The position numbers and the translations under genes were made by a program. Below the pieces are notes generated by a model. The model worked only from the letters and a program-made list of their open reading frames with translations. It made no database searches and had not been told where the DNA came from. A DNA stretch of 64,000 bases from Candidatus Omnitrophota bacterium (GTDB taxonomy: Bacteria > Omnitrophota > Gorgyraeia > Gygaellales > Profunditerraquicolaceae): contig JAKPTF010000097.1 in the NCBI GenBank assembly GCA_029571225.1, positions 417 to 64,416 on the forward strand, written 5' to 3'. Below are positions 1,506 through 35,762 of this stretch, in pieces (position 1 is the stretch's first letter; each line of letters begins with the position of its first letter).

Positions 1506-1517
1506 GAGGCTCGTTTC

Positions 1518-1874: not shown

Positions 1875-1885
1875 CAACGGTGCTC

Positions 1886-2227
1886 ATGAACAAAGGGCTT
1901 GTGTATTCGACTGACCATGGCTCCATGTGTCCGGACTGCGGCAGGCCTGTGGCCGGATGTTGCTGCGGGGATGTGAACTGGGAAAAAATAGCTCGGACAG
2001 ACGGGACCGTGCGCGTGCGGTATGAAAAGAGCTGCCGCAAAGGCAAGGGTGTTACCGTGATCAGTGGCCTGCCTCTGAATCAGGCCGGCCTCGAAAAGGT
2101 ATCACGGGAGTTCAAAAAAAGATTCGGCGCAGGCGGAACCGTGCACGCGGGCGTGATCGAGGTCCAGGGAGACCGCTGCGATCAGATAACCGGCGAGTTG
2201 AGGAGCCGTGGGTATACGGTAAAATGA
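1886..2227 (+). CDS. yciH: Translation initiation factor SUI1/YciH family
   Basis: LVYSTDHG...VRVRYEKSCRKGKGVTVISGL...FKKRFGAGGTVHAGVIEVQGD matches the YciH/eIF1 layout. ATG 1886 preferred; the track ORF starts at GTG 1880. Confidence 0.85.
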   Translation: MNKGLVYSTDHGSMCPDCGRPVAGCCCGDVNWEKIARTDGTVRVRYEKSCRKGKGVTVISGLPLNQAGLEKVSREFKKRFGAGGTVHAGVIEVQGDRCDQITGELRSRGYTVK

Positions 2228-2766
2228 CCCGGATAGCGCACAGGCAGAGTTTTATTGAGATTCATCGCCTGGTTGTTGCATGCCTGGTGATTTTTTTTGC
2301 CTCGCTAGCCTGCGCCCAGCCGGAGGGCAAGGTAGTCTCGTCTGAAAAAACCGGGTCTCTGGAATTGACCCTGCAGATCAAAGCAAAGAGGCAGGAGCTC
2401 AAGGAGGTAGAAGGCCGAATAAAAGCCCTGCGTAGGGAGCAACGGGCCCAGATGGAATCAGAGCGCGTCAGCCGTAAGGCCCAGTTGCAAACCAGCCTGG
2501 AGACGCTGCGATTGACAGACCCGCAGAAATACGAGCAGGCGGTTGCTGAGAAGTTCAAGCGTGAGAAAGAACGGGAAATGTCCCGCAGGGCACAAGCCGA
2601 CGTGGTTCCTGCCAGGCCGAGGATAACCCATTCCGAATGGCTTGACCAGCTTAAAAGCGAAAATCCTTCTATGTACGATCTTGTTTTGAAGAAGGATATT
2701 CTTGAGGCGGAAATACGGTCGCTGTGCATGATGCGCGACTCCAGGCGGGAACGAAGGCCGGAATGA
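2224..2766 (+). CDS. Secreted/anchored coiled-coil protein, function unknown
   Basis: ATGA overlap with yciH. Hydrophobic N-terminus (LVVACLVIFFASLACA) followed by a K/E/R/Q-rich heptad-like sequence. No family recognised. Confidence 0.5.
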   Translation: MTRIAHRQSFIEIHRLVVACLVIFFASLACAQPEGKVVSSEKTGSLELTLQIKAKRQELKEVEGRIKALRREQRAQMESERVSRKAQLQTSLETLRLTDPQKYEQAVAEKFKREKEREMSRRAQADVVPARPRITHSEWLDQLKSENPSMYDLVLKKDILEAEIRSLCMMRDSRRERRPE

Positions 2767-2770
2767 AAAG

Positions 2771-3391
2771 ATGGGCGGCGGTTATGGAGTGGAAGCGCCT
2801 GAATACGGCCGAGAAGTGACAGCAGCCAGCGATATGATCCGGACGATCTTGAGAGATGCCGATGATTGGTGTAAAGGAAAAAACCGGCTCTACCGTGCAC
2901 CGTTGCTTGCATATTTCGTCTATGTGCTGGCGCGGCATCTTCGGGATCCTCTCTATACGAGCGCGCTAGGCGCTTTAAATCTGGGCATTCATGAGCTCGG
3001 TCACGTTGTTTTCGGCGTTCTGGGCCAGGCCCTGATGATCGCAGGCGGTACGGCCCTTCAACTGGCCGTGCCGGTCATAGCCGTATTCAATTTCTACCGC
3101 CTTCGCGATTATTTCGCTATCGCTTTGTCTTTCGGATGGCTTTCGACGAATTTATTCAACGTTGCCACGTATATGGCCGATGCGCGCAGGCAGGAATTGC
3201 CCCTGGTCGGCATCGGCGGGGAGAGCGTGAACCACGATTGGGAATATATATTTTCGGCGATGAATATCTTGCAATATGATACGGCGATCGCGGCATTCGT
3301 CCGCATGCTTGCGGTTCTGTCCATGCTGTGCTGCTTTGCAGCCGGGGCGTGGCTTTTGTGGCGTATGACGCCTGCGTCAGGTGACGGCTGA
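2771..3391 (+). CDS. Polytopic membrane protein with an HExxH motif (putative membrane metalloprotease-like)
   Basis: 206 aa with several hydrophobic helices. HELGH lies within or next to a helix (LNLGIHELGHVVFG). No family recognised. Confidence 0.5.
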   Translation: MGGGYGVEAPEYGREVTAASDMIRTILRDADDWCKGKNRLYRAPLLAYFVYVLARHLRDPLYTSALGALNLGIHELGHVVFGVLGQALMIAGGTALQLAVPVIAVFNFYRLRDYFAIALSFGWLSTNLFNVATYMADARRQELPLVGIGGESVNHDWEYIFSAMNILQYDTAIAAFVRMLAVLSMLCCFAAGAWLLWRMTPASGDG

Positions 3392-3392
3392 T

Positions 3393-4697
3393 ATGATTTC
3401 CAGAAGGGTTTCCGAAGGCCTGCCTGCGGGGTTCCAGCTTTCTCTGGAGTTTGCCCGAGCGTTCGATCTGATGGAAAATACTGATCAGTGCATCCTTGTT
3501 ACTGGCAAGGCGGGCACAGGCAAATCCACGCTGCTGCAGTTCTTTTTAGAGAACACCGCGAAGCAATGCGTTGTCCTTGCTCCAACCGGCGTTGCAGCCG
3601 TCAACGTGAACGGCCAGACCATTCATTCTTTCTTCGGTTTCCCTCCCAGGTTCATCCATGAAGACTCGATTCGACGCAGGCGAAACCGCAAGATGATCAA
3701 ACGCATCGATACGGTCATCATAGACGAGGTATCCATGGTTAGGGCGGATCTGATGGATGGTATAGATCAGGCCCTTCGCATTAACCGCGACCGGCCGGAC
3801 GAGCCTTTCGGCGGCGCGCAGGTGTTGCTGTTCGGAGACCTTTTCCAGCTGGCGCCGATCGTGGGGCAGGATTTGTCCGGCCTCTATCAGGAACATTACG
3901 CGACGCCTTATTTTTTCAGCGCACACGTTTTCAAGGAAGCCGCTTTTTTGCGGATAGAGCTCACCAGGATCTTCAGGCAGTCAGACGACAGCTTCATCGG
4001 CCTGTTGAACAGGATACGGAACAATCAATGCGACGACGGCGACTTCAGCCTCCTGAACAGCAGGGTCGATAGGTCCATCGGCGACGGCCCGGACCAGTGC
4101 GTCACGCTGACGGCGACCAATTACGACGCGAGGTCTTTGAACCAGAGGCGCCTTGCGAGATTGCCCGGCCGGCTGGTCGAGTATGAGGCGGATATCGCTG
4201 AAGACTTCGACGAGCCGTCATATCCGACCGACCGCATGTTGAGGCTTAAAGCAGGCGCCCAGGTGATGATGCTCAAGAACGACCCGCAGAAACGGTGGGT
4301 AAACGGTTCTATCGGCGTTATCCGGGCGCTTGTCGGCAGCGTTATAAGCGTCGATATCGACGGCAGGATCCGTGAGGTTGAGCCAGTTGAATGGCAGAAG
4401 ATCGTTTATGAATACAATAAAGCGGAGGACCGGATCGAAGAAAAGGTCATCGGGACGTTCACGCAGTATCCGCTCAAGCTCGCCTGGGCGGTTACGATAC
4501 ATAAGAGCCAGGGCCAGACTTTCGATAATGTCGTGATAGACCTGGGCAGGGGAGCGTTTGCCCACGGCCAGGTGTACGTGGCGCTTTCCAGGTGCACGAG
4601 CCTGCAGGGCATAACGCTCAAAAGGCCGGTCACCCCGCGTGATATTGTATTTGATGCCCGTATCCATGAATGCGCCGGCATGATGCCGGCGGGATGA
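3393..4697 (+). CDS. Pif1/RecD-family ATP-dependent DNA helicase
   Basis: Walker A GKAGTGKST, IIDEVSM (Walker B) and the C-terminal AVTIHKSQGQTFD...YVALSRC motif are typical of Pif1/RecD/TraA-like SF1B helicases. An alternative GTG start at 3381 overlaps the upstream gene. Confidence 0.85.
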   Translation: MISRRVSEGLPAGFQLSLEFARAFDLMENTDQCILVTGKAGTGKSTLLQFFLENTAKQCVVLAPTGVAAVNVNGQTIHSFFGFPPRFIHEDSIRRRRNRKMIKRIDTVIIDEVSMVRADLMDGIDQALRINRDRPDEPFGGAQVLLFGDLFQLAPIVGQDLSGLYQEHYATPYFFSAHVFKEAAFLRIELTRIFRQSDDSFIGLLNRIRNNQCDDGDFSLLNSRVDRSIGDGPDQCVTLTATNYDARSLNQRRLARLPGRLVEYEADIAEDFDEPSYPTDRMLRLKAGAQVMMLKNDPQKRWVNGSIGVIRALVGSVISVDIDGRIREVEPVEWQKIVYEYNKAEDRIEEKVIGTFTQYPLKLAWAVTIHKSQGQTFDNVVIDLGRGAFAHGQVYVALSRCTSLQGITLKRPVTPRDIVFDARIHECAGMMPAG

Positions 4698-4732
4698 TGG
4701 GCGGTTTTTTAGACAACGAAGGGAGGATAAGG

Positions 4733-5533
4733 ATGTTAAGGAGTCCTGTGATAGCTCTGATTACGGTGTTGTGCGCAGCTGTCCTGGCGCATGCGTCGGA
4801 CGCGATCGTAGAATTCGAGGGCCGGTATTGGATGCCGGATTTGACAGCAAAGGCGCGCGTGACCGAATCGAACATAATCGGCAGCGATATAAATTTCAAG
4901 TCAGAACTTGGCATCAAGGACGAGGATTTTCCCGAAGGCAGGTTCACCTGGCACGTCAGCCCGAACAGTAAAATCCGCGCGTTCTATACGCAGGCGGAGT
5001 TCAAAGGAGATCAGGTTGTGTCCAGGACGATTACCTTTGACGGAAAGACGTATACCGCAGGTGCGCAGGTCAAGACGGATCTGGATCTGCAGTATTTCGG
5101 CCTCGGATGGGTATGGGAATTCATTGATGTCCTGAACGGCAGGCTCAAGGCAGGCACGATCCTTGAGGCAAAGGGGGTTGCTGGCAAGGCTACACTGGAT
5201 GCGCCCGGGCTCGGGATAAAGGAATCGGCGGATTTTATAGGCGGGTTGCCTACCGTAGGTCTTACACTTGCGATAAACCCGTTCAAAAACAACGCCCCGT
5301 ACGTTTCAAATACCGTCATATCGGACTTAAGCCTGTATGCGGAAGCTGCCGGAATGTCCGCAGGGGAATACGGGTATTTTATCGACGCGGAAGCAGGGAT
5401 TCGCTGGATGCCGGTTAAATATGTCTGCGTCTCAGGAGGTTACCGGGCTGTTTCTTTGAAAGCAGAGGACGACCCTGATTACGCCCGTTTCGAGCTAAAG
5501 GGCCCGTTTGCCGCAGTTGCGATAAGGTTCTAA
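4733..5533 (+). CDS. Outer-membrane beta-barrel protein
   Basis: Signal peptide MLRSPVIALITVLCAAVLAHA, alternating amphipathic strands, and a C-terminal ...AAVAIRF ending in Phe as in OM barrels. The track ORF starts at 4670. Confidence 0.55.
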   Translation: MLRSPVIALITVLCAAVLAHASDAIVEFEGRYWMPDLTAKARVTESNIIGSDINFKSELGIKDEDFPEGRFTWHVSPNSKIRAFYTQAEFKGDQVVSRTITFDGKTYTAGAQVKTDLDLQYFGLGWVWEFIDVLNGRLKAGTILEAKGVAGKATLDAPGLGIKESADFIGGLPTVGLTLAINPFKNNAPYVSNTVISDLSLYAEAAGMSAGEYGYFIDAEAGIRWMPVKYVCVSGGYRAVSLKAEDDPDYARFELKGPFAAVAIRF

Positions 5534-5578: not shown

Positions 5579-6274
5579 GTGAGAGTGAAGCGCATTATCT
5601 GCTTCATGGCGCTGGCCGCGCTGCTGCCCGCTGTTGCCCGGGCCTCAGACACGGACCGCGATGCGTATGCCGGCCGCCTCACCGCGCTTTTAAGAGCCGG
5701 ACAAATGGAATCGGGTGACAGGCAGGCCCGGCTGTTGAACGAGTCCGAACGGGCTTTTGTGAATTTCGCGCAGGAATATCCCGATAGCATATACGCTGAT
5801 GATTCCCTGTTCGTATACAGCCTCATCGAGTTTATGGGAGCTGCGTTGGTTCCTCCGCGCGATATGGATACGGCGCGGCAGATGATCGTGATGATGGACA
5901 GGATGGCCGCGCAATATCCCGGAGGCAGGCTTGAACCGCTGACGTATTCAGTGCTGGAGCGTGAACTCGGCCAAGACGGCTTATCCGGGTCTTTTTACAT
6001 GCCGTACGGCTGCGTCGTCTCCTATATGCGGGCAGTCCTGTGCGGTGCTGAGCGTAATTACATGGAAGCGATCCAGAGGTACAACGAATTGAGGCTTTGC
6101 CTGCGGCCTATCGAGGACGAGAGGATCGCCGCGGAGGTCTATATTCCTTTGTTCCGGGCTTACCTCAAGACCGAGCGAAGCGCTTCTGCGCAGGCCATCG
6201 CGGATGAGGTGTCGCAGCTGTTTCCCGGATCGCGGCTCCAGGCAATATTGCGCAGCGAGAGCGGGCGGGAATAA
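5579..6274 (+). CDS. Secreted helical-repeat protein, function unknown
   Basis: GTG start. Signal peptide MRVKRIICFMALAALLPAVARA. The rest is helix-rich. No family recognised. Confidence 0.5.
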   Translation: MRVKRIICFMALAALLPAVARASDTDRDAYAGRLTALLRAGQMESGDRQARLLNESERAFVNFAQEYPDSIYADDSLFVYSLIEFMGAALVPPRDMDTARQMIVMMDRMAAQYPGGRLEPLTYSVLERELGQDGLSGSFYMPYGCVVSYMRAVLCGAERNYMEAIQRYNELRLCLRPIEDERIAAEVYIPLFRAYLKTERSASAQAIADEVSQLFPGSRLQAILRSESGRE

Positions 6275-6308
6275 CAGAGGCGCCAATATTAAATTTTAAA
6301 AATAGTTG

Positions 6309-6336
6309 TTGACAAAGAATGGATCAATGGTATACT
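6309..6336 (+). promoter_or_regulatory. Sigma70-type promoter of the cold-shock gene
   Basis: TTGACA (6309-6314), 16-nt spacer, TGG-TATACT extended -10 (6328-6336). Confidence 0.7.
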
Positions 6337-6354
6337 TGATTTCAGTAGTGAGTA

Positions 6355-6409
6355 AAGATTAGAAGTCAGTAGCCGAAAAGCTTATGATGTCTAGCCTTTC
6401 GGCTTTTTT
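6355..6409 (+). promoter_or_regulatory. csp 5' leader element: AAGATTAG box plus terminator-like hairpin
   Basis: AAGATTAG at 6355-6362. Hairpin agccgaaaagc/gcctttcggct (6371-6404, one mismatch, 12-nt loop) followed by TTTTTTGTT. It lies between the promoter and the RBS (GAAGGAGG). Confidence 0.55.
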
Positions 6410-6457
6410 GTTGACGGCTTTATTCACTAAAATTCAAGAAGAAGGAGGTAGTGAGCA

Positions 6458-6658
6458 ATGGTTAAGGGAAAAGTAAAGTGGTTCTCGAACGAAAAAGGCT
6501 ACGGTTTTATTACTCCTGAAAACGGTAATGATGTCTTCGTGCATCATAGCGTGATTCAGGGTGAGGGATATAAGACGCTTGCCGAAGGACAGGAAGTTGA
6601 ACTGGAAATAGTTCAGGGTCCGAAGGGCGAACAGGCCTCGAAAGTCGTAAAGCTCTAA
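6458..6658 (+). CDS. cspA: Cold-shock protein (CspA family)
   Basis: 66 aa. RNP1 KGYGFI and RNP2 VFVHHS motifs with a full CSD layout. Confidence 0.95.
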
Positions 6659-6676
6659 TCGCAGCGAGATACACAC

Positions 6677-6709
6677 GGCCCGGCATAGTAATATGCCGGG
6701 CCTTTTTTT
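6677..6709 (+). terminator. Intrinsic terminator of csp
   Basis: Perfect 11-bp stem ggcccggcata/tatgccgggcc, loop gtaa, then T7. Confidence 0.9.
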
Positions 6710-6720
6710 ATGTTTACGGT

Positions 6721-6749
6721 TGATAAAACGAGTGGATAGGTGTAAAATA
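6721..6749 (+). promoter_or_regulatory. Putative promoter of the ktrB operon
   Basis: TTGATA (6721-6726), 17-nt spacer, TAAAAT (6744-6749). Confidence 0.5.
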
Positions 6750-6788
6750 ATAAAAATTATGTCAATACGGGAAAGGTGTTCGTGCTGA

Positions 6789-8483
6789 ATGCTTAATTTT
6801 ATAAAGCGTAAATACGATTATTTCATAGGGTTTACCGCGCTTGTGGCGTTTGCGCTTCTGCTCATCGAGAATTCGGCGTATGTCAGGCCGTACGCGTTCC
6901 TGATAGGAGAGATCAACCTTACGGTAACCCTTATTTTCGTCAGCGACATCCTTCTTCGTTTCTTCGCCGCCCGCGATAAGAAAACGCACCTTTCCCGCAA
7001 CTGGTTGGATCTGATTGTTTTTATTCCGTTCATCCAGCTCATCAGGGGTCTGGAGAATACCGCCGCATTTGTCATCATACGCCAGATTGTCATCATCTTG
7101 ATTCTTTTGTCCCGGATACGCAAATCTACCAGGCTGCTCAATCTGCTCAGCCTCAAACCGGCGCAGATGATGATTGCGACTTTCGCTTTCGCCATCGGCG
7201 TAGGCGCCGTGCTTTTGATGCTGCCTGTCGCTACGAGGACGGGCGTCAGGACATCGTTGACCGACGCGCTGTTCACCGCGACTTCGGCCACGTGCGTCAC
7301 CGGTTTGACCGTTAAGGATACTGCCGTGCATTTCAGCCTGTTCGGCCAGATCGTGATACTTGCACTCATACAGGTCGGGGGTCTGGGTATTATGACGTTT
7401 TCGGTATCCATGGCCCTGATCATGGGCAAGAACATGGACATGAAGCAGCAGGTGGTTATGTCGGATATCCTCGATGAAAGCTCGCTTGCCCGGGTCAAGC
7501 ACATGGTGACGTATATCCTGAAAATGACGCTTTTTTGCGAGGCAGCCGGAGCAGCGTTATTGTTCGCATCGTGGATCGGCAGGACCGGAGGAGTGGTGAA
7601 GACGGCGTATTATTCCGTGTTTCACGCGGTATCAGCATTCTGCAACGCCGGGTTCTCAACTTTCAGCAACAATCTGGTCAGGTTTCATGACGATGTATCC
7701 ACGAATCTTGTCATTTGCGCGCTTATCGTCGTAGGCGGGCTCGGTTTCACGGTTATAAAGGATCTCCACGATAATCTGAATATACGGTTCGATTTTTCGA
7801 TAAGGCGCAAGGTCAAGCTGAAAATGCATACGAAGGTGGCCGTTTTGATGTCCGCAGCTCTCATTATTCTGGGCGCGGCCGCATTCTATCTCCTCGAAAA
7901 GGACGCGCTTTTCGCCGGATACGATCTCAAAGGCCGCGTGTTGTCGTCCCTGTTCCAGTCGGTAACCGCCAGGACAGCGGGGTTCAATACGTGCAGTATA
8001 GCCGGTCTCTCCGGCACATCCTTGCTTGTTATGATGATACTGATGTTTATCGGCGGCTCTCCCGGTTCAACCGCAGGCGGCGTCAAGACGACGACGGTGT
8101 CCGTGCTGTTATCCACGATCATCAGCGAATTTCAGGGTAAGGATAATACCGAGATATTCAGGCGGACGATCTCTCCTGCCCTCATAAAAAAAGCGATGAT
8201 TATCTTTTCGGTGTCCAGCATCCTCGTCGTGGCGTTTGCCGCTGGTTTACTCATGGTGGAGCACAAACAATTCCTGCCTGTTGTTTTTGAATCGGTGAGC
8301 GCCTTCGGCACGGTCGGCCTGTCCGCTGACCTGACCCAGGCGTTGAGCGGCAGAGGCAAGCTTTTGATCACAGTGCTCATGTTCATCGGCAGGCTGGGCC
8401 CGTTGACCGTCGGTTACGCGTTCCTGCGGCGCCACCGCCAGCCGCGGTACGAATACGCCCGGGAGAACCTTGCCATCGGATAA
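6789..8483 (+). CDS. ktrB: KtrB/TrkH-family K+ transporter with an N-terminal ~115-aa four-helix voltage-sensor-like extension
   Basis: The core carries the TrkH/KtrB signature (LFTATSATCVTGL, AFCNAGFS, TARTAGFN, SAFGTVGLS selectivity-filter-like repeats). The N-terminus resembles S1-S4 of the ion_trans family (IFVSDILLRFFAARDKK, NWLDLIVFIPF, IIRQIVIILILLSRIRKSTRLL). Confidence 0.85.
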   Translation: MLNFIKRKYDYFIGFTALVAFALLLIENSAYVRPYAFLIGEINLTVTLIFVSDILLRFFAARDKKTHLSRNWLDLIVFIPFIQLIRGLENTAAFVIIRQIVIILILLSRIRKSTRLLNLLSLKPAQMMIATFAFAIGVGAVLLMLPVATRTGVRTSLTDALFTATSATCVTGLTVKDTAVHFSLFGQIVILALIQVGGLGIMTFSVSMALIMGKNMDMKQQVVMSDILDESSLARVKHMVTYILKMTLFCEAAGAALLFASWIGRTGGVVKTAYYSVFHAVSAFCNAGFSTFSNNLVRFHDDVSTNLVICALIVVGGLGFTVIKDLHDNLNIRFDFSIRRKVKLKMHTKVAVLMSAALIILGAAAFYLLEKDALFAGYDLKGRVLSSLFQSVTARTAGFNTCSIAGLSGTSLLVMMILMFIGGSPGSTAGGVKTTTVSVLLSTIISEFQGKDNTEIFRRTISPALIKKAMIIFSVSSILVVAFAAGLLMVEHKQFLPVVFESVSAFGTVGLSADLTQALSGRGKLLITVLMFIGRLGPLTVGYAFLRRHRQPRYEYARENLAIG

Positions 8484-26778: not shown

Positions 26779-28860
26779 ATGAGCCCGGCCGGGTATATGG
26801 CATCGGGTTGCAGGATACTCTCCGATCCCCGTATAATCATTGCCTACCTGTGTTATGTCGTCGGCGTTTCTTACGCCGCCGAATATGTATTGCCTGTACA
26901 GATCGCCGCGACTCTTTTGGTCGAGCCGCTTGTGTTCTCTTATATTGCCTCCAGGTTTTTCATAGAGGTTGTTGGCCCTTCTCGGCTGCCTGAGCACCGT
27001 TCAATGCGCTGGCGGCTTTACGGGCCTTTTATGGCGATATTCGCCATGCTGTTTGCCGGAACCGTCGCGTTCCAGGCCGCATATTTCTTTTTTTTCCGAC
27101 GCGACGTCCCCGTATCGATGCCGTTGCTCGCCTGGTACGGTGTGCTTTCGACCATGGTCGTGTTCTGGATGACCGGAGTTTTGTTCTGCCGCGGCAGTGT
27201 ATGGAGAGGGTTGGTTGCGGCTTTCCGGCTGGCTGGGAAATATCCGGCTGCGGCGGCAATGTTTTTTGCCGGATATTTTTTGTTCGAGGTCTTCCATGAG
27301 TCATTCGGTTTCGGCTCCCTGCGAAGCGCTAATCCCGGCGCGTTCGTTATCCTTCACTCGGCGTATGCGTTCTTTGATCTTTACGTAACCAGGGCCGCGG
27401 TAGAGATCGCGGCTTTATCCGGCTTCTTTGCCGACTCTCTTGCTGTGCTCGATGAATATGTTTCGGTGCGGCCGCAGGCAGCCGCAATTGACAACCACCG
27501 CTCGCAGATGAGAAGGGCGAATGTCTGCCTGTTTCTGGGATGCATATCGTTCATTCCCGTCATCCACCTCTTTGCCGCGGTTCTCGGATGGAAGCGCTTC
27601 AGGAACCAGGAATACGGCCGTTTTCGTTCAGTAGTCGGGGCAGCCCTGGGGGTATTCTTTACCGCAATCTATGCCTGCGCCCTTGCAGGCAATCTGCTCT
27701 TTCCTGAAACAAAGTTCAGGGCTCAGGAGCATGTGGCGAGCCTCGAGGTATTTATGCGGGATCCCGCAGTTTCAACACGCGTTAAACAGGCCATCCGACT
27801 CTTACAGTCGAAGAAAGGGGCAAATCCTGCGGTTGTGGCTGCCAGGCTCGAAGAATCCGCAGGCGATCAGAGCCAGGCACGTTATTTTGCCCTGGGCCTG
27901 GCGCACAGCCGGGCGTATCAGCCGAAAGAGGCCCTCGCCGCCTTCAAGAAATGCCTGGAACTTCCGGGCTGGAGCCCGGAGGTATTGTTCCATATCGGCA
28001 GGATTCATCTTTTCCAGACCCATGATTTTTCCGAGGCCCGCAGCAATCTCGTCAGGTTTATGGGTTTGCGTCCTGATGACAGGACAGCAGCGCTGTATAT
28101 TGCCCTCATCGACAACAGGGTCTCTTGGGACAGGAATTGGGCCATCAGCCTTATGTCCGTGATCGCGCTTCTGATCGCCATTACCTGTCATGAATTCGGC
28201 CACAGTTATGCCGCGTATAAATGCGGGGATAGGACGCCGAAAGATGCTGGCCGTTTGTCCCTGAACCCGGCAGTGCATCTGGACCTTTTCGGATCCATTA
28301 TCCTGCCTGCATCGCTGATCCTTACGCGCAGCGGAATCGTAGTCGGGTGGGCAAAGCCTGTTCCGGTCAACCCTGAAAATTTCAGGGACCGGAAACGCGA
28401 TACGGCGCTGGTATCGGCCATGGGATGCTGCACGAACTTCGCGATTGCCTTTGCAGCAACGATCGTGCTTGCCTTTGCCGGTGCGTGCCTGACGGTTCTG
28501 GCACCTGATTTCGTATCGTTTCACTGGCTTTTTCCATCCGGATTCGTATCGGCTGCGGGCGTGCCGTTTGCGCGTTTATGGATTTACGGGGTCATATTCA
28601 CCAGCCTCTTGATAATGGTTAACATAGCCATCGGGGTGTTCAATCTTATTCCGATTCCGCCGCTTGACGGGGCGTGGGTCGTAGAACAAAGGCTGCGGTC
28701 CGCCCTGAAGGGTTATTATGCCGCATATCATCAATTCGCTTTTCTGCTGATCCTGGTTTTACTCTATGCAAATGTCATCGATACCGTGATCGGGTTTATC
28801 GTGAACTCGTATTTTGCATACCTGCAGGCTGTCCTGGCGCCAGCGCTGTACCTGACATGA
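26779..28860 (+). CDS. Large fusion: polytopic N-terminal membrane region + TPR-like segment + C-terminal M50-type (site-2 protease family) domain
   Basis: 693 aa. HEFGH at 28189-28203 is followed by GRLSLNPAVHLDLFGS and NLIPIPPLDG, the pattern of the small stand-alone 'site-2 protease family' proteins. It is preceded by ~330 aa of TM helices and a TPR-like stretch (ARYFALGLAHSRAYQPKEALAAFKKCLEL). Confidence 0.7.
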   Translation: MSPAGYMASGCRILSDPRIIIAYLCYVVGVSYAAEYVLPVQIAATLLVEPLVFSYIASRFFIEVVGPSRLPEHRSMRWRLYGPFMAIFAMLFAGTVAFQAAYFFFFRRDVPVSMPLLAWYGVLSTMVVFWMTGVLFCRGSVWRGLVAAFRLAGKYPAAAAMFFAGYFLFEVFHESFGFGSLRSANPGAFVILHSAYAFFDLYVTRAAVEIAALSGFFADSLAVLDEYVSVRPQAAAIDNHRSQMRRANVCLFLGCISFIPVIHLFAAVLGWKRFRNQEYGRFRSVVGAALGVFFTAIYACALAGNLLFPETKFRAQEHVASLEVFMRDPAVSTRVKQAIRLLQSKKGANPAVVAARLEESAGDQSQARYFALGLAHSRAYQPKEALAAFKKCLELPGWSPEVLFHIGRIHLFQTHDFSEARSNLVRFMGLRPDDRTAALYIALIDNRVSWDRNWAISLMSVIALLIAITCHEFGHSYAAYKCGDRTPKDAGRLSLNPAVHLDLFGSIILPASLILTRSGIVVGWAKPVPVNPENFRDRKRDTALVSAMGCCTNFAIAFAATIVLAFAGACLTVLAPDFVSFHWLFPSGFVSAAGVPFARLWIYGVIFTSLLIMVNIAIGVFNLIPIPPLDGAWVVEQRLRSALKGYYAAYHQFAFLLILVLLYANVIDTVIGFIVNSYFAYLQAVLAPALYLT

Positions 28861-28876: not shown

Positions 28877-29824
28877 ATGGCTATATGTTCAAGAAGGAAA
28901 TTCCTTAAAATTGTTGCTGCCGGCATCGGGTCTGCGGCGGCCTTGAGATTTTTTTCCCGCGCGGGTATCGCGCAGGCAGTCAGATCGTCGAACGGTCGGA
29001 AGCGGCGCACTATAACGGCAGATCATGATCTCGTCGCGGTTAAAGGTTCCGACCCGGCTGCGATGACGCGCGCGGCTGTTAAGGCTCTGGGAGGGATGGC
29101 GAAGTTCGTCCCCCGGGGAAGCACTGTCGTCGTCAAGCCGAACATCGGCTGGGACCGAAGTCCTGAGACCGGGGCAAACACGAATCCGGATGTCGTCGCG
29201 GCCCTTGTCGAGATGTGTTATGAAGCCGGGGCAAAGAGGGTCAATGTGTTCGACAATACCTGCAACACGGCGCAGCGATGTTATGAGACAAGCGGCATCA
29301 GGCGCCTGGCGGAAAGTAAAGGCGCGCGGGTGTACCATACCGACGCCTGGAATTTCGTCAGGGCGCAGTTCCCCTATGAAAGCCCGATGGAAGGGTGGCC
29401 CGTGTTCCGTGACGCGATCGAATGCGATACGTTCATAAACGTGCCGGTCCTGAAGCATCATGGCCTGACCGGGTTGACTCTGGGCATGAAGAACCTTATG
29501 GGCGTTTGCGGCGGATCGCGCGGGCAGATCCATTTCAACATAGGCCGGAAGCTGGTCGATATGGCTGATTTCATCAAGCCGGAACTTACCGTGATAGACG
29601 GATTCAGGTATCTTGCGCGCAACGGCCCAACAGGCGGCAATTTAGCTGACGTGCTGGCCCTGGGCACCGTCATCGCTTCGCCCGATATAACGCTGGCTGA
29701 TGTGTACGCTGCGCGTCTTGTCGGCAGGGATCCTAATTCCATCCCTTATATCGCCAATGCGATCGAGCGCGGCCTTGGTAGTCCGTATTACGCGGGCAAA
29801 GACGTCGTGGAACTGTCGGTATGA
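28877..29824 (+). CDS. DUF362-family protein with a twin-arginine (Tat) signal peptide
   Basis: MAICSRRKFLKIVAAGIGSAAALRFFSRAGIAQA is a Tat signal. VVVKPNIGW...NTNPDVV...LKHH...MKNLMG is the DUF362 pattern (COG2006-like). Confidence 0.8.
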   Translation: MAICSRRKFLKIVAAGIGSAAALRFFSRAGIAQAVRSSNGRKRRTITADHDLVAVKGSDPAAMTRAAVKALGGMAKFVPRGSTVVVKPNIGWDRSPETGANTNPDVVAALVEMCYEAGAKRVNVFDNTCNTAQRCYETSGIRRLAESKGARVYHTDAWNFVRAQFPYESPMEGWPVFRDAIECDTFINVPVLKHHGLTGLTLGMKNLMGVCGGSRGQIHFNIGRKLVDMADFIKPELTVIDGFRYLARNGPTGGNLADVLALGTVIASPDITLADVYAARLVGRDPNSIPYIANAIERGLGSPYYAGKDVVELSV

Positions 29825-29834
29825 CCCTGTAAAA

Positions 29835-31367
29835 ATGAAAAAACTCGTTGTTGCTAAAAGGGCGTCGCAGGCTGTTTTCTTATCGATGTTCGTCTATATA
29901 CTCTGGTCCACGACCTATCCGCTTACCGGGCCAGTTTCTCCGCAGCTATTGTTCAAGGCGGACCCGCTTCTTGTGCTGGCAACGGCGGTCAGCGAACGCG
30001 CGGCAGTGCCGGGTATAGCGTGGGCGCTGGCGATGTGCTTCCTGACGCTTGTAGCCGGGAGGTTTTTTTGCGGGTGGATGTGCCCGCTGGGTTCGCTCAT
30101 AGATATGGCAGGGGCAGAGAAGAAGGACAGGCCGTTATCCGACAAACGGAACCGCCGTCTGCGCAGGGTAAAATACTGGCTTCTTGCCTGCATTCTTGCG
30201 GCTGCCGGAGCAGGGATCCAGCTCGCATGGCTGTTCGATCCTGTAGTAATATTCGGACGTTTCGTTTCCCTGAACCTTATACCGGCGATTACGTTCGCTT
30301 TTGACGCCGCGTTTTCTTCGTTGATCCGAGGCTTCCATCTTTACGGCCCGGTTTATGACCTGTATCGTTACCTCAAGACAACAATCCTGGGGGTCCAGGT
30401 GCGGTATGTCGCCCACGCGGCTGCCGTGTTCGCGTATATACTTTCCATCGTCATTGCCGCTGACCTGTTGAAACGGTCATGGTGCAGGATCTGCTGTCCG
30501 CTCGGAGCGCTGTACGGCCTGATCGGGCGGTTTACTTTGCTTGAGCGCTCGGTCGATAGATGCTCGCACTGCGGAAATTGCTCTTCTTCCTGCCGCATGG
30601 GCGCAATCACAAAAGACGCCGGTTATGTCAAATCCGAATGCATCCTGTGCATGGATTGCGTCTATGATTGTCCTTCGAAGGGGACACGGTTCGGGTTCCC
30701 TTTAGGTCCTGAAGCCGGGGAGATCGGCGGAAGCTCCGTAAACCGCAGGCAATTCCTGGCGCTGGGACTTTTGTCTCTGCCGTCTTTACTTGGTTTCAGG
30801 GTCGCCTATCCTGGCAGGCCCGGTTCACAAAGAAGGCGAGTGATCAGGCCGCCCGCAGCGCTTGAGGAAGAGGAATTCCTTAACCGGTGCGTGCGGTGCG
30901 GCAATTGCATGAAGGTTTGCGTCACCAACGGCCTTCAGCCCGCGTTTCTGGAATCTGGTATCGGAGGCATCTGGACTCCGCATCTGGTCCCCGAAATCGG
31001 GTATTGCGAATACCATTGCACTCTTTGCGGCAGCGTATGCCCCACAGGCGCCATCCCGCGCCTTACAGAAGAGCAGAAGCTCAAGACAAGGCTCGGGATC
31101 GCCCGGATCGACCGATCCCTGTGCCTGCCGTGGATAAAAAAACAGGAATGCCTTGTTTGCGAGGAGCATTGTCCGATTGCCAGCAAGGCGATACAATTGC
31201 GCCCGACCACGGTAAACGGCAAGGCGTTATTGCGGCCGTATATCAATGAGCGGCTGTGCATAGGCTGCGGCATATGCCAGACAAAATGCCCTGTGCGCCC
31301 TGATAGGGCAATTAAAATATATCCCGTGCGTGTGACGCGCGGCATAAAAAAAAGGCAAAAGCCATGA
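29835..31367 (+). CDS. Membrane polyferredoxin: NapH-like (2x Cx3CP, 2 Fe-S motifs) fused through an RR-containing helix to a NapG-like 4-cluster ferredoxin
   Basis: CGWMCPLGS and CRICCPLGA lie in the TM region. Cys motifs: CSHCGNCSSSC, CILCMDCVYDCP | NRRQFLALGLLSL | CVRCGNCMKVC, CTLCGSVCP, CLVCEEHCP, CIGCGICQTKCP. The track ORF starts at 29700. Confidence 0.8.
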   Translation: MKKLVVAKRASQAVFLSMFVYILWSTTYPLTGPVSPQLLFKADPLLVLATAVSERAAVPGIAWALAMCFLTLVAGRFFCGWMCPLGSLIDMAGAEKKDRPLSDKRNRRLRRVKYWLLACILAAAGAGIQLAWLFDPVVIFGRFVSLNLIPAITFAFDAAFSSLIRGFHLYGPVYDLYRYLKTTILGVQVRYVAHAAAVFAYILSIVIAADLLKRSWCRICCPLGALYGLIGRFTLLERSVDRCSHCGNCSSSCRMGAITKDAGYVKSECILCMDCVYDCPSKGTRFGFPLGPEAGEIGGSSVNRRQFLALGLLSLPSLLGFRVAYPGRPGSQRRRVIRPPAALEEEEFLNRCVRCGNCMKVCVTNGLQPAFLESGIGGIWTPHLVPEIGYCEYHCTLCGSVCPTGAIPRLTEEQKLKTRLGIARIDRSLCLPWIKKQECLVCEEHCPIASKAIQLRPTTVNGKALLRPYINERLCIGCGICQTKCPVRPDRAIKIYPVRVTRGIKKRQKP

Positions 31368-32437
31368 AGAACTGTGTTTTCTTTGCGCCGGTATCAGGCG
31401 AGGAAGCGGAGCCGGCGGTGCGCGCCAGGCTGGATGAGTTGATACGCCGTAGCGGCTGCAATTCCGTGATAAGCTCCGGAGACAGAGTCGTGCTTAAACT
31501 TCATTTCGGGGAACAGGGCAATAAGGGTTTTGTGCGGCCGTCGTATGTATCAGCGATTGCGCAGGCGGCGGCGCGCGCGGGCGGAGAACCGGTCGTTTCC
31601 GACACCAATACCCTGTACCGCGGCAGGCGTATGAATTCAACGGATCATTTGAAGCTTGCGTATGAGCATGGTTTTACGCCTGACGCGCTCAAGGCGCAGG
31701 TCGTAGTTCCCGATGACACCAGGCCGGAGAATGTCCGCGCCATAGAAGCCAACGGCGAGTACGTGAAGACCGCCAAGATTGCGGCGATATATGCCGGGGC
31801 GGACGCCTTGATCGGAATAACTCATTTCAAGGGCCATCTTATGACAGGTTTCGGCGGCGCGGTGAAGAATATCGGAATGGGATGCGCGACCCGGGAGGGC
31901 AAGCTTTTTCAGCATTCGGATCTCTCGCCGATCGTGGTTATAAAAAAGTGTACCGGCTGCAAGGCATGCGTGTCCGTGTGCCCAGCCGGGGCCATTACCA
32001 TGAAGAACGGCATGGCGGCGGTGGATACGGCAAGATGCATCGGCTGCGCTAGCTGTATCCCCGCATGCAAATTCAGGGCCATCGATCTTGACTGGGAGGG
32101 AGGCGGCATGTCCATCCAGGAAAAGATGGCAGAATACGCCATGGCTGTTTTGGGCAATAAAAAAGGCAAGGCCTTTTTCTTTAATTTTCTTATAAAGATT
32201 ACAAAGGAATGCGATTGCCTGGCGAAAGACGATCCCCGCATCGTGCCGGATATCGGCATCCTTGCGTCGGAGGATCCGGTTGCCGTGGACCAGGCAAGCC
32301 TGGACCTGGTAATTGCCAGAGCAGGCGAGGATATCTTAAGGAAGCTCCATCCTCATCGCGACGGCACCAGGCAGCTGGCGCACGCTGCAAAGATAGGCAT
32401 GGGAAGCAGGGAATACCTGCTGGAGACGATCAACTGA
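31364..32437 (+). CDS. Cytoplasmic DUF362-family protein with an inserted 2x[4Fe-4S] ferredoxin domain
   Basis: ATGA overlap with the upstream gene. VLKLHFGE...THFKGH...GGAVKNIGMG with CTGCKACVSVCP and CIGCASCIPAC (COG2768-like). No signal peptide. Confidence 0.8.
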   Translation: MKNCVFFAPVSGEEAEPAVRARLDELIRRSGCNSVISSGDRVVLKLHFGEQGNKGFVRPSYVSAIAQAAARAGGEPVVSDTNTLYRGRRMNSTDHLKLAYEHGFTPDALKAQVVVPDDTRPENVRAIEANGEYVKTAKIAAIYAGADALIGITHFKGHLMTGFGGAVKNIGMGCATREGKLFQHSDLSPIVVIKKCTGCKACVSVCPAGAITMKNGMAAVDTARCIGCASCIPACKFRAIDLDWEGGGMSIQEKMAEYAMAVLGNKKGKAFFFNFLIKITKECDCLAKDDPRIVPDIGILASEDPVAVDQASLDLVIARAGEDILRKLHPHRDGTRQLAHAAKIGMGSREYLLETIN

Positions 32438-32453: not shown

Positions 32454-33683
32454 ATGAAGAACGTATTGAGCGTCATACTCGGCGGGGGCAGGGGGACGCG
32501 CCTGTACCCTTTAACCAAATACCGCGCAAAGCCGGCTGTGCCTCTCGCCGGGAAATACAGGCTTATCGACATTCCAATAAGCAATTGCCTGAACTCCGGC
32601 CTGCAGAAGATATTCGTTTTGACCCAGTTCAATTCGGTATCCCTGAACCGGCACATTTTCCGCGCGTATAAATTCGATACATTCTCTCAGGGTTACGTCG
32701 AGATCCTCGCCGCGGAGCAGAGTATGGAGCACGGGGACTGGTTCCAGGGGTCTGCCGACGCCGTGCGGAAATGCCTGCGCCATTTCTCGGATCCGCGCAT
32801 CGAATATATCCTGATCCTTTCCGGAGACCAGCTGTATAAGATGAATTTCATCTCGATGCTTAATTTTCATTTCGAGAAACGCTCGGATATCACTATCGCA
32901 TGCAATCCGGTTGAGCCCGAAGAGACGCGCGATCTGGGGATCATGGGAATCGATAAGACACGCCGCATCAGGCGTTTTATCGAGAAGCCCGGCCATAAGA
33001 AAGAGATCGCCGGGATGGAGATTGAGTCCGAAGGCAGAAAAAAATACCTCGCGTCCATGGGGATCTACATCTTCAAGAAGGAGGTCCTGACAGAGTTGCT
33101 GACCTCCAGCAACAAAGCGGATTTCGGCAAAGAGGTCATCCCCGACGCGCTCGCCCAACGCCGCGCCTTTGCCTATGTGCACACAGGATACTGGAAGGAC
33201 ATTGGATCTATCACTTCGTTCTACGAAGAGAACATGGCCTTTACCCGGGCGAGGCCGCCCATAGACCTGTTTGATGAGAAATGGCCGTTCTTCACCAGGC
33301 CCAGGTATCTGCCTCTTTCAAAGATCAGCGATGCCGTGATCAAGGATTCGGATATCGCCGAAGGCACGGTCATCGCCTCGGCCGAGGTCCGCCGTTCGAT
33401 CATCGGCCTGCGCAGCAGGATCGGCGGAGGGTCGCGTATCGAGGATTCGATCATCATGGGCAACGATTATTATGACAACAGCCGTCAGGCCCCAACTCTG
33501 GGCATAGGAAAAAACTGCCACATACGCAAGGCCATCATAGACAAGAACGTGCGCATGGGGGACAATGTGAGGATTATAAACCGCGACAGGCTCGTTGATT
33601 TCGAAAATGAGTTTTGCGTGATCCGCAACGGGATCGTCATCATCCCTAAGGCCGCGGTCATACCGTCGGGAACGGTGATCTGA
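32454..33683 (+). CDS. glgC: Glucose-1-phosphate adenylyltransferase
   Basis: ILGGGRGTRLYPLTKYRAKPAVPLAGKYRLIDIPISNCLNSG and a C-terminal left-handed beta-helix repeat region. Confidence 0.9.
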   Translation: MKNVLSVILGGGRGTRLYPLTKYRAKPAVPLAGKYRLIDIPISNCLNSGLQKIFVLTQFNSVSLNRHIFRAYKFDTFSQGYVEILAAEQSMEHGDWFQGSADAVRKCLRHFSDPRIEYILILSGDQLYKMNFISMLNFHFEKRSDITIACNPVEPEETRDLGIMGIDKTRRIRRFIEKPGHKKEIAGMEIESEGRKKYLASMGIYIFKKEVLTELLTSSNKADFGKEVIPDALAQRRAFAYVHTGYWKDIGSITSFYEENMAFTRARPPIDLFDEKWPFFTRPRYLPLSKISDAVIKDSDIAEGTVIASAEVRRSIIGLRSRIGGGSRIEDSIIMGNDYYDNSRQAPTLGIGKNCHIRKAIIDKNVRMGDNVRIINRDRLVDFENEFCVIRNGIVIIPKAAVIPSGTVI

Positions 33684-33691
33684 AAATATGC

Positions 33692-33720
33692 TTGCTATGG
33701 AGCGTAAAATTTCATATAAT
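33692..33720 (+). promoter_or_regulatory. Putative promoter of the glucan phosphorylase gene
   Basis: TTGCTA (33692-33697), 17-nt spacer, TATAAT (33715-33720). Confidence 0.5.
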
Positions 33721-33752
33721 ACTGTGCCACAGACAACAAAAGGGGTTGGCGC

Positions 33753-35762
33753 ATGCCTGGCAAGCAATTATTAACGGAATTCCTCTCGCTTGTACAGATC
33801 GACGGATTCGAGGACGTATTCATCAACGATATCGTCCACGACAAGTTTTTCGGCCTGCCTTTGGAACCCATCATCGCGGCGGAAAAACGCCTGCGCGATC
33901 CCGCCAGCCGTTCCATTGCGTATTTTTCCATGGAATACGGCCTTGCCACGAGCTTCTATAATAAATTCTCCGCGACAAAGCCCCTGCATTATAATAACAA
34001 GATACAGGAGACGGAGGTCTTTTCGAACTTCCGGCTCGCCGATTATTTCTTCACCCTTAAGACGGATTCTATCATAGACCTTCCTATATATAGCGGCGGG
34101 CTGGGTGTCCTCGCGGGGGACACGGTCAAGACCATGGCGGATTATAAGCTCCCTGTCGTGGCGATCGGCATGCTCTGGAACACCGGTTATTTCAGGCAGA
34201 AATTCTGGTTCAAATACGGCCAGATGCCCGAAGCGATGCACTGGGACCTGTATTCGTATCCCGGTCTGATCCCCCTCAAGAACAAGGTCAAGATATCTCT
34301 GAAGGACGAGGAGATATACCTTCGTTTATGGAAATATTACGTCTACAGCTACCGGCACGACGCAGTCGTGCCTTTGATCCTTCTGGATTCCAACGCCAAT
34401 GAGAACATCGAGAAGAACAGGCGGCTTACCGATCAGCTTTACCGCAGCGACAACAACTGGATCAAGATCATGCAGCGGGTCATCCTGGGCATGGGCGGAG
34501 TAGCTGCCCTTAAGGAGCTGGGCTATCAGATCGACCTGTTCCATCTTAATGAAGGCCATGCGGTCTTCGCGTTCGTTGAAAAAGCCCGCGGCCTTCCTGC
34601 CGAGGGTGTCAGGGACCTTAAAAGGCATTTCGTTTACACCTGCCATACTCCCGTTGACGCGGGCCATGACCGTTTTCCGTCGGACGAATTGAACCGTATA
34701 TTGAAACGGGAGGATTTCGAGATCACCGATACGTTCGGCAGGGATAAAGGCGGTGTCATCAATCTCACCCTGCTGTCCATGAACATTGCTTCGTGCATTA
34801 ACGCCGTTTCGCATAATCATCAGAAGGTCATGCATATCCAGTTTCCAAAATACAAAGAACAGATCAAATACGTGACAAACGGCGTGCATTCCCATACCTG
34901 GATGTCTGACCGTTTCAAGGGAGTTTTTGAAAAATTTGCAAAAGAATTCGGGGACGTCAGGGCAAATCCTATGGCGCTCTCAAGGGCGCGGGACCTGCGA
35001 GCGAACAGGGACTTCCGTCAGGCGGTCTGGGATGCCCATCAGGCGAACAAACAGGACCTGTGCGACCTGCTGGGGAAATGGAAGCTTGACAAGGACGCCT
35101 TCACGATCTGCTGGGCCCGGCGCGTCGCCGCATATAAACGGCCGAGCCTGATCCTGCAGGATGTCAAAGCGCTTGTTGAGATCGGGAAAAAATTCGGCCA
35201 GGTCCAGATAATATTCGCCGGAAAAGCGCATCCGAACGATAACCTCGGGTTTACCTTCATCAACGAGATGCTCGACCGCGTCGACGAGCTGACCGATGTA
35301 TATGATTATCTGCGGTTCATAATGCTGGAGAATTACGAGATCTCGACTGCCAAAATGCTTGTCTCGGGCGTGGACGTGTGGCTGAACAACCCTTTGCCGC
35401 CTTTCGAGGCGTCGGGCACCAGCGGCATGAAGGCGATTATGAACGCGGTGGTCCAGGTTTCGACGATCGACGGCTGGATTGCCGAGGCGACCGAAATGGA
35501 TATCGGGCGGCTGTTCGGGTATGTCAACGAAGAGGGGACGATCGGCAACGAGCACGATCTGCACATGCGCGAGGATTCGGTCATGCTCTACAAGGCCCTT
35601 GAAGAGATGGTCTCATTGTATTATCAGTCCAACAGGAATGGGGTTATGGACGTATCCTCCGCCTGGATAGACCTCATGATCAACTGCCTGGCCGCGTCAG
35701 CCCGATTCAATACGTATCGCATGCTCGATCAGTATAAATCACTTGTCTGGAACATCCCATAG
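33753..35762 (+). CDS. glgP: Alpha-glucan phosphorylase (GT35, short 'alpha-glucan family' type)
   Basis: YFSMEYGL, GGLGVLAGD and EASGTSGMK (PLP-Lys motif). 669 aa. Confidence 0.85.
   Translation: MPGKQLLTEFLSLVQIDGFEDVFINDIVHDKFFGLPLEPIIAAEKRLRDPASRSIAYFSMEYGLATSFYNKFSATKPLHYNNKIQETEVFSNFRLADYFFTLKTDSIIDLPIYSGGLGVLAGDTVKTMADYKLPVVAIGMLWNTGYFRQKFWFKYGQMPEAMHWDLYSYPGLIPLKNKVKISLKDEEIYLRLWKYYVYSYRHDAVVPLILLDSNANENIEKNRRLTDQLYRSDNNWIKIMQRVILGMGGVAALKELGYQIDLFHLNEGHAVFAFVEKARGLPAEGVRDLKRHFVYTCHTPVDAGHDRFPSDELNRILKREDFEITDTFGRDKGGVINLTLLSMNIASCINAVSHNHQKVMHIQFPKYKEQIKYVTNGVHSHTWMSDRFKGVFEKFAKEFGDVRANPMALSRARDLRANRDFRQAVWDAHQANKQDLCDLLGKWKLDKDAFTICWARRVAAYKRPSLILQDVKALVEIGKKFGQVQIIFAGKAHPNDNLGFTFINEMLDRVDELTDVYDYLRFIMLENYEISTAKMLVSGVDVWLNNPLPPFEASGTSGMKAIMNAVVQVSTIDGWIAEATEMDIGRLFGYVNEEGTIGNEHDLHMREDSVMLYKALEEMVSLYYQSNRNGVMDVSSAWIDLMINCLAASARFNTYRMLDQYKSLVWNIP

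Follow-up and report, generated by a model that had tools for sequence, protein, structure and literature searches.

How does a membrane protein with iron-sulfur cluster motifs on both sides of an internal twin-arginine pair reach its final location, and does this pair direct the C-terminal part of the protein to export by twin-arginine translocation (Tat)? The question is raised by a 64,000-nucleotide stretch of contig JAKPTF010000097.1 from a Candidatus Omnitrophota bacterium (assembly GCA_029571225.1, positions 417 to 64,416 of the forward strand; referred to here as the window, in which all features described below lie on the + strand). In this window the gene 29835..31367 encodes a polytopic polyferredoxin of 510 amino acids, and a sequence-only reading had noticed the RRQFL motif in it, proposing that the early helices are inserted by Sec and the last helix with its folded domain by Tat, so that clusters stand on both membrane faces. 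According to our analysis the product is a fusion of NapH-like and NapG-like parts that is inserted into the membrane by two translocases in turn, a reading to which we assign a probability of about 80%, with both the Tat dependence and the topology drawn from homology to an experimentally tested family.

On the + strand the nucleotides 30738-30758 read gta aac cgc agg caa ttc ctg and are translated as V-N-R-R-Q-F-L, where the R-R-Q-F-L codons occupy 30744-30758 and are in frame with the open reading frame (ORF) 29700..31367. The ATG at 29835 (MKKLVVAKR...) is likely the true start of the gene; it is located 10 nt past the stop of the upstream gene, and the 510-residue product translated from it is identical to the database protein P0001, "4Fe-4S binding protein [Candidatus Omnitrophota bacterium]", while no clear Shine-Dalgarno sequence was seen in front of it (ccctgtaaaa). 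The start at 29700, which gives the longest ORF, was dropped in view of its 125-nt overlap with the upstream DUF362 gene and the database protein beginning at 29835.

The N-terminal part of the protein is a NapH-like membrane module (29865..30470) with four predicted transmembrane (TM) segments, TM1 at residues 11-31, TM2 at 58-78, TM3 at 114-134, and TM4 at 191-212, which were located by hydropathy scan and coincide with AlphaFold2 (AF2) helices with a predicted local distance difference test score (pLDDT) of about 90. Two CX3CP motifs, predicted to lie at the cytoplasmic ends of TM2 and TM4, respectively, are matched by two stretches of Pfam Fer4_5: C79-G-W-M-C83-P84 at 30069..30086, in which C79, C83, and P84 are invariant, and C217-R-I-C-C221-P222 at 30483..30500, in which C217, C221, and P222 are invariant. 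They are followed by a putative cytoplasmic ferredoxin-type domain at 30561..30674 (Pfam Fer4_9, residues 287-327 in the long-ORF numbering) that carries two CxxCxxCxxxC motifs (C243-C253 and C269-C279-P280), where all eight cysteines are invariant; Pfam thus recognizes Fer4_5 twice together with dicluster domains. The internal twin-arginine motif N303-R304-R305-Q306-F307-L308 (30741..30758), with an invariant R304, leads into the hydrophobic region (h-region) or fifth membrane segment at 30750..30797, a weakly hydrophobic stretch of 16 uncharged residues, QFLALGLLSLPSLLGF, without an AxA site, which AF2 models as helix 304-318. Behind it comes the tail RVAYPGRPGSQRRRVIRPP with the NapG hallmark IRPP, whose arginine-rich portion RVAYPGRPGSQRRRVIR (30798..30848) carries six R and no D or E. 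From R338-P339-P340 onwards the protein continues as a NapG/MauM-like domain at 30846..31304, predicted to be periplasmic, with 16 cysteines in four [4Fe-4S] motifs of four cysteines each (C352...C485-P486) that form invariant columns. The description given by the sequence-only reading, namely, a NapH-like TM block and two cysteine motifs before the arginine pair and a hydrophobic helix and four cluster motifs after it, is therefore borne out by codons and frame, hydropathy, Pfam, and profiles.

The two halves of the protein are identified by different profile families. The NapH/MauN profile TIGR02163 matches the N-terminal half with E 4e-26, and the NapG profiles NF007012 and TIGR00397 match the C-terminal half with E 5e-29 and E 1e-24, respectively. 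The NapG alignment begins at model position 9, within the signal-peptide region of NapG, which corresponds to residue 302 of the window protein; the match therefore opens inside the NapG signal peptide, and the internal twin-arginine motif is the counterpart of the NapG Tat signal in the middle of a NapH-NapG fusion. The equivalog cut-offs are reached neither for NapH (TIGR02163, 92 versus 213 bits; NF007013, 89 versus 234 bits) nor for NapG (NF007012, 101 versus 269 bits; TIGR00397, 87 versus 179 bits), and with scores so far under the curated limits the protein is neither NapH nor NapG in the strict sense, the homology being at the level of domains. In the AF2 model (mean pLDDT 82.7) the helix 304-318 stands isolated between low-confidence, disordered linkers; a Foldseek search of this model against the Protein Data Bank (PDB) gave no match below E 0.06, returning generic polyferredoxins only, and the modelled membrane module is on this comparison without a solved structural relative.

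Proteins of this construction have already been described. In Tooke, Babot, Chandra, Buchanan, and Palmer study (eLife 2017, PMC5449189) genomes were mined for polytopic proteins in which a Tat motif precedes the last helix, and Q1NSB0 of the delta proteobacterium MLMS-1 was presented as a "complex polyferredoxin", a fusion of NapH and NapG with five transmembrane domains (TMDs), three clusters inside, and four outside, with homologues in Chloroflexi, Nitrospirae, and Euryarchaeota. The sequence-only reading had named multi-TM polyferredoxins as a further proposed class of dually inserted proteins, which was correct. Q1NSB0 was assayed with maltose-binding protein (MBP), AmiA, and Bla fusions, and the reporters placed behind TMD5 (MBP and AmiA) were exported in a Tat-dependent manner in E. 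coli; the handover from Sec to Tat was governed by the low hydrophobicity of TMD5 and by C-terminal positive charges. Sec insertion of this segment needed added leucines together with the loss of one positive charge (PMC5449189).

The tested MLMS-1 fragment (residues 1-363, taken from the supplement of Tooke et al.) aligns with the window protein at E 2e-29 with the arginine pairs in register. Database search found the 550-residue protein P0391, which is 99% identical to this fragment, and the window protein aligns with it over residues 37-507 with 37% identity (E 9e-96), the RR, the RPP, and every cysteine motif being in register; another protein, P0134, was matched by both the window protein and the MLMS-1 fragment. 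The family comprises 1216 clusters at 50% identity with E <= 1e-30. By its sequence the window protein belongs to the dual Sec/Tat polytopic polyferredoxin family of Tooke et al. It shares with Q1NSB0 the NapH-like block (with four TM segments predicted), the two CX3CP motifs, and the two putatively cytoplasmic ferredoxin motifs in the same order, and further the RR before a weak fifth segment, the positive charges, the RPP, and the four cluster motifs; also, a Tat-signal DUF362 gene, such as the one upstream in the window, adjoins the polyferredoxin gene in Desulfurivibrio alkaliphilus, the closest cultured relative. The differences are that the window protein comes from Omnitrophota, a phylum absent from the list of Tooke et al., that its cytoplasmic linker between the ferredoxin motifs is shorter, and that its clade often loses the second arginine, while Tooke et al. 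call the RR conserved.

Considered apart from this homology, the motif on its own is weak evidence: NRRQFL fits the TatP default pattern RR.[FGAVML][LITMVF], but this pattern alone has 23% false positives among RR-containing TM proteins (PMC1182353), and a loose scan for RR followed by an uncharged stretch finds matches in 7 of the 121 long ORFs of the window. The frequency of such loose matches (7/121) is what speaks for an explanation in which Sec or YidC inserts the fifth segment, the C-terminal domain crosses the membrane unfolded, and the RR is irrelevant to targeting.

The physical properties of the segment argue otherwise. On the additive scale of Hessa 2005, taken as the best 19-mer sum and being an approximation rather than the delta-G server used by Tooke et al., the RR-preceded segment of the window protein has +4.1 compared with +0.4 to +1.4 for TM2-4, and the medians over 85 loci are +7.5 for the RR-preceded segment, -1.5 for TM2, 0.0 for TM3, and -0.5 for TM4. 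In 85/85 loci the RR-preceded segment is less favourable than each of TM2-4. The uncharged stretch after the RR has a median of 15 residues, and the tail up to the RPP contains medians of 5 K/R and 1 D/E, being net positive in 82 of the 85 loci; in the window protein the 17 residues behind the h-region include 6 Arg and no acidic residue. Both handover determinants of Tooke et al., a weakly hydrophobic last helix and positive charges behind it, are thus recognizable in the sequence of the window protein. For a Sec or YidC route the segment would be the least competent of the whole protein, with six Arg behind it. Moreover, [4Fe-4S] clusters are inserted in the cytoplasm and no periplasmic route for their assembly is known, so that the four-cluster domain could not thread through the membrane unfolded. 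Finally, the TMD5 of the prototype could be given to Sec only with additional leucines and removal of positive charge (PMC5449189). According to these data insertion of the fifth segment by Sec or YidC is considered extremely unlikely.

The side of the membrane on which TatC would meet the motif depends on the topology. The N-terminus is basic (MKKLVVAKR), the TM1-TM2 loop is of periplasmic type with few charges, the loop after TM2 (residues 85-113) contains about 10 K/R, the segment after TM4 is rich in K/R, and about 55 residues separate TM3 from TM4; these K/R counts agree with the positive-inside rule for an N-in topology with four TM segments. The favoured arrangement, based on hydropathy, the positive-inside rule, the one-sided position of the CX3CP pair, and the published NapH-type module, has four TM segments before the RR and both the N-terminus and the motif in the cytoplasm. 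The sequence-only reading had taken an even number of helices before the motif as a sign that the C-terminal domain stays cytoplasmic; this argument is inverted, because with the N-terminus inside an even count (four) is just what the model needs to leave the RR in the cytoplasm for TatC, after which the C-terminus would be taken outside by the fifth segment.

Whether the exported part stays attached is another matter, since an internal signal could also be cleavable: after Tat export signal peptidase would free a soluble periplasmic NapG-like ferredoxin and the NapH-like stub would remain in the membrane. Such an outcome would resemble stand-alone NapG, which is described as periplasmic and dependent on Tat (PMC5449189), and the signal of the neighbouring DUF362 protein does have AxA-type sites behind its h-region, for example, AQA and AFAK. 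In the polyferredoxin, on the contrary, the h-region ends in G-F-[RK] without a small-x-small site in the window protein and most orthologues, so that the fifth segment should stay uncleaved as an anchor, and Tooke et al. also regard the corresponding segment as the TMD5 membrane anchor (PMC5449189). Cleavage is therefore judged very unlikely. With its internal position (residue 303), Tat-like motif, Tat-like weak hydrophobicity, and absent cleavage site, the RR segment is best regarded as a signal-anchor variant and not as a canonical Tat signal peptide.

The preferred reading, insertion by Sec and Tat in turn, can be put as a sequence of steps. Sec would insert the four NapH-like helices cotranslationally with the N-terminus inside, and the CX3CP pair and two ferredoxin-type clusters would remain cytoplasmic. 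The fifth segment, whose length and hydrophobicity fall short of what Sec needs and which is followed by the arginine-rich tail, would fail to insert and stay on the cytoplasmic side, where the NapG-like C-terminal domain would fold and gain four [4Fe-4S] clusters. TatC would then read the S/T-R-R-x-F-L motif just before the fifth segment in the manner of an N-terminal Tat signal and the Tat system would translocate the folded domain; without a signal-peptidase site the segment would be kept as the fifth transmembrane anchor. In the end one polypeptide would carry an Fe-S cluster chain on both membrane faces, as the sequence-only reading had proposed, and homology to the tested MLMS-1 polyferredoxin supports it.

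Several observations weigh against this route. The second Arg is replaced in about half of the Omnitrophota orthologues (RK in 25 and RG, RA, RS, RQ, RT, or RN in 16 of 86). The hydrophobicity ranking comes, as said, from an additive approximation. The long AF2 helix of residues 136-167 holds a hydrophobic stretch (residues 138-156) that a predictor could call as a further TM segment, and Tooke et al. report variable predictions for TMD2-4 of the polyferredoxin (PMC5449189). Neither TatA nor TatC was found when the six-frame ORFs of the window were searched by phmmer with the Omnitrophota proteins, and it is the canonical SRRKFLK signal encoded by the adjacent DUF362 gene from which a Tat system in this genome is inferred. 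Also, the redox partners proposed below come from gene neighbourhood only.

The loss of the second arginine also counts in favour of an explanation in which the motif is a fossil: a NapG signal left behind by napH-napG fusion, with a segment that fails to span the membrane, so that the seven clusters are all cytoplasmic. In an alignment of 88 close homologues (52-87% identity) R304 is invariant and F307 is conserved in at least 90%, while the linker in front of the motif and the residues behind the h-region are free to vary; invariance returns at R338-P339-P340 and extends to all 16 C-terminal cysteines. It is this conservation within an otherwise variable linker that makes the motif significant. 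In a diverse set of 150 representatives (35-55% identity, 149 assessable) RR is found in about 126 of 149 (about 85%), KR in about 11, RK in 3-4, and R followed by A, G, T, S, or L in 9. In the Omnitrophota set (86 loci, 80 of them one per species, with the states taken by alignment-based extraction) the polyferredoxin motif [ST]-R-x-x-F-[LIM] has RR in 44 loci, RK in 25, RG in 8, RA, RS, and RQ in 2 each, and RT and RN in 1 each, and its first R never varies. The homologue alignment, by which the sequence-only reading wished the conservation of the pair to be checked, thus upheld the first arginine fully and the second one only in part, in about 85% of the diverse set and about half of the Omnitrophota loci.

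The DUF362 proteins of the same loci show a parallel drift. Their N-terminal motif [ST]-R-x-x-F-[LIM]-K has RR in about 27 loci, RK in 27, and RG in 7, besides RS, RE, RW, RI, and RA (the L010 entry was counted as RM though its sequence reads SRRQFLK), and outside Omnitrophota, in Desulfurivibrio alkaliphilus, Nitrospiraceae, and Dissulfurispiraceae, RR is canonical in both the DUF362 protein and the polyferredoxin. Within the Omnitrophota loci RR in the polyferredoxin was not significantly associated with RR in the adjacent DUF362 protein (17/20 versus 9/23, Fisher p = 0.14). The Tat-signal model TIGR01409 was left unused, since the canonical DUF362 signal itself does not reach its cut-off (12 versus 16.7 bits). 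As cited in PMC1182353, DeLisa et al. found that in E. coli K, N, or Q can take the place of the second Arg in a Tat signal with export not blocked. The drift of the second Arg is therefore no argument against Tat, because the DUF362 signal drifts alike, the tatAC genes are often co-clustered, and RR is canonical outside Omnitrophota.

For the fossil it can further be said that the h-region is weakly hydrophobic, with no more than about 15 uncharged residues, that the arginine-rich tail would satisfy the positive-inside rule if kept inside, and that AF2 confidence is low around the segment. A fossil, however, would not retain an invariant first R, the S/T cap, the F, and the L/I/M amid a free-running linker, nor an uncharged stretch of constant length in 85/85 loci; besides, the homologous MLMS-1 segment exports reporters in a Tat-dependent manner (PMC5449189), tatAC is co-clustered in 29/86 loci, and the co-encoded DUF362 protein is by its signal a Tat substrate, which would place the partner in the periplasm. 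Taken together, a fossil signal is regarded as unlikely.

The gene directly upstream (28877..29824) encodes the DUF362 protein of 315 amino acids (Pfam DUF362, E 2e-49) with an N-terminal Tat signal MAICSRRKFLKIVAAGIGSAAAL...AQA, whose SRRKFLK codons occupy 28889-28909; by its signal and position this protein is likely a soluble periplasmic partner of the polyferredoxin. In 79 of the 86 Omnitrophota loci the polyferredoxin gene is immediately preceded by a Tat-signal DUF362 gene, and the pair is also found in L088 (5055-7680), where the protein is that of Desulfurivibrio alkaliphilus, among cultured relatives the one closest to the tested MLMS-1 protein, and in L090 (5108-7545, Nitrospiraceae), while in L089 (Dissulfurispiraceae) the DUF362/polyferredoxin genes are located at 1745-2647 and 6001-7542. 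Such a recurring combination points to a conserved two-gene module with a putative periplasmic redox function. The pair is itself immediately preceded, on the same strand, by tatA and/or tatC in 29 of the 86 Omnitrophota loci, including loci with SRG or SRW motifs, for example, L004 with the order tatA-tatC-DUF362-polyferredoxin (1358-4783); further examples are L007 (2144-6518), L024, L030, L031, L034, L037, L040, L042, L046, L049, L052, L061, L069, L071, L074, and L085, among others.

Downstream, the gene 31364..32437 encodes a second DUF362 protein, which is interrupted by a 2x[4Fe-4S] ferredoxin domain (Pfam DUF362 and Fer4) and has no signal peptide, hence predicted to be cytoplasmic; the polyferredoxin stop overlaps its start (ATGA), so that the two genes are coupled in translation. 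Because of the 10-nt gap on one side and this ATGA overlap on the other, 28877..29824, 29835..31367, and 31364..32437 form a tight unit. The signal-less DUF362-ferredoxin gene is directly downstream only in the closest relatives, and in about nine other loci a similar gene is found on the opposite strand about 2 kb downstream. DUF362 shares a Pfam clan with the N-terminal domain of LarA (PMC11770544), and a PDB sequence search with the DUF362 protein returned nothing at E <= 0.01. From this gene neighbourhood, and by analogy with NapGH, it is likely that the polyferredoxin passes electrons between a cytoplasmic donor or the quinone pool and the periplasmic DUF362 protein, and the downstream cytoplasmic DUF362-ferredoxin protein may dock on its inner face.

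The co-clustered tatC genes allow the drift of the second arginine to be compared with the receptor itself. In the 2026 cryo-electron microscopy structure of E. coli TatBC with a substrate the first Arg is water-bonded to TatC E15 and stacked under F94, the second Arg is salt-bridged to E103 and packed against Y100, and the consensus Phe lies in a pocket of F94, L9, H12, and L13 (PMC13323110). We compared 25 TatC proteins encoded beside a DUF362-polyferredoxin pair (e.g., L004, 1564-2292) in E. coli numbering, the register of which was checked against Aquifex TatC of the PDB (PALYSHEKR versus PAVTGGLKK in L004). H12, L13, E15, R17, F94, P97, and D211 are kept in 25/25 of these proteins, and Glu103 and Tyr100 are found in 0/25. 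The same is seen in the 120 closest database homologues of the L004 TatC (P0271-P0390), where E103 and Y100 both occur in 0/120; position 100 is E or D in 84 of the 120 and many of the TatC proteins have an acidic residue shifted to positions 100-102, so that the acidic residue may only be displaced.

Within the 25 loci the state of this loop can be set against the motifs. Where loop 98-106 of TatC contains an acidic residue, the second motif residue is basic in 17 cases and non-basic in 4; where the loop has none, it is basic in 12 and non-basic in 16. The acid-less loop thus goes with a non-basic second residue (Fisher p = 0.009, uncorrected for phylogeny and with two non-independent motifs per locus), an association in the sequences that is suggestive. 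Tentatively, and with odds that we would place clearly below even, the Omnitrophota polyferredoxin and its DUF362 partner could be clients of a natural "single-arginine" Tat system, in which the RR of the window protein would be a retained ancestral state and not a requirement, and the pair of Tat-targeted DUF362 protein and polyferredoxin, found in three phyla, would be a periplasmic redox module.

Among known systems the NapH/NapG quinol dehydrogenase of periplasmic nitrate reductase systems (E. coli, Wolinella succinogenes) shares with the window protein the NapH half and the NapG half, including the region of the Tat signal and the (L/I)RPPGA with which the mature part begins, and also the predicted placement of NapH clusters inside and NapG clusters outside (PMC5449189, discussion). 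In the window protein, by contrast, the two are one polypeptide instead of two, the Tat signal would be internal and uncleaved, and there are no nap genes nearby, the neighbours being DUF362 proteins. The actinobacterial Rieske proteins (QcrA, Sco2149) and the heme-molybdenum cofactor (MoCo) protein Sco3746 follow a like logic, with early helices inserted by Sec and an RR, a weak last helix, and a folded cofactor domain handled by Tat (PMC5449189); they are unrelated in sequence and cofactor, having three or five TM segments with a 2Fe-2S Rieske or MoCo domain, and Pfam and profile searches of the window protein gave no match to Rieske or MoCo families. Weak matches were obtained with the NosR profile; NosR and RdhC (PceC) differ from the polyferredoxin in carrying an N-terminal periplasmic domain that binds flavin mononucleotide and in being without an RR-preceded exported C-terminal Fe-S domain.

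Some members of the polyferredoxin family are longer (about 770-930 residues; P0141, P0197, P0201, P0204, P0225, P0227, P0229, P0238, P0247, and P0262) and have an extra C-terminal DUF6599 domain after the four-cluster domain, which on the predicted topology would also be periplasmic. The members of about 800 residues were considered as possible DUF362 fusions, which was rejected, as DUF6599 is carried instead.

As for the surroundings of the three-gene unit, directly upstream of the DUF362 gene the window contains a gene at 26779-28860 for a 693-residue protein with a polytopic N-terminal region, tetratricopeptide repeats, and a C-terminal M50 (site-2 protease) domain, an arrangement seen also in the close relative L001. 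Just past the unit, 32454-35762 comprises a glucose-1-phosphate nucleotidyltransferase-like gene (409 residues) followed by a gene for a 669-residue protein, whose counterpart in L001 is a glycogen-phosphorylase-family protein; this gene order is shared with L001.

In summary, few families of membrane proteins are established as taking the rare route of dual Sec/Tat insertion in their biogenesis, and as the polyferredoxin family was already described and tested, the locus adds an Omnitrophota member to it and is a confirmation, not a discovery. What merits following is the pairing with DUF362, together with the recognition of single-arginine Tat signals that may exist in Omnitrophota. The near-constant pairing with a Tat-targeted DUF362 protein in Omnitrophota, Desulfobacterota, and Nitrospirota is the first handle on the purpose of the polyferredoxin and would in turn give DUF362, a family without known function, a location and a redox partner, and the fact that both substrates lose the second arginine in parallel with the loss of its two contacts in TatC may serve as a natural test of the solved mechanism of signal recognition.

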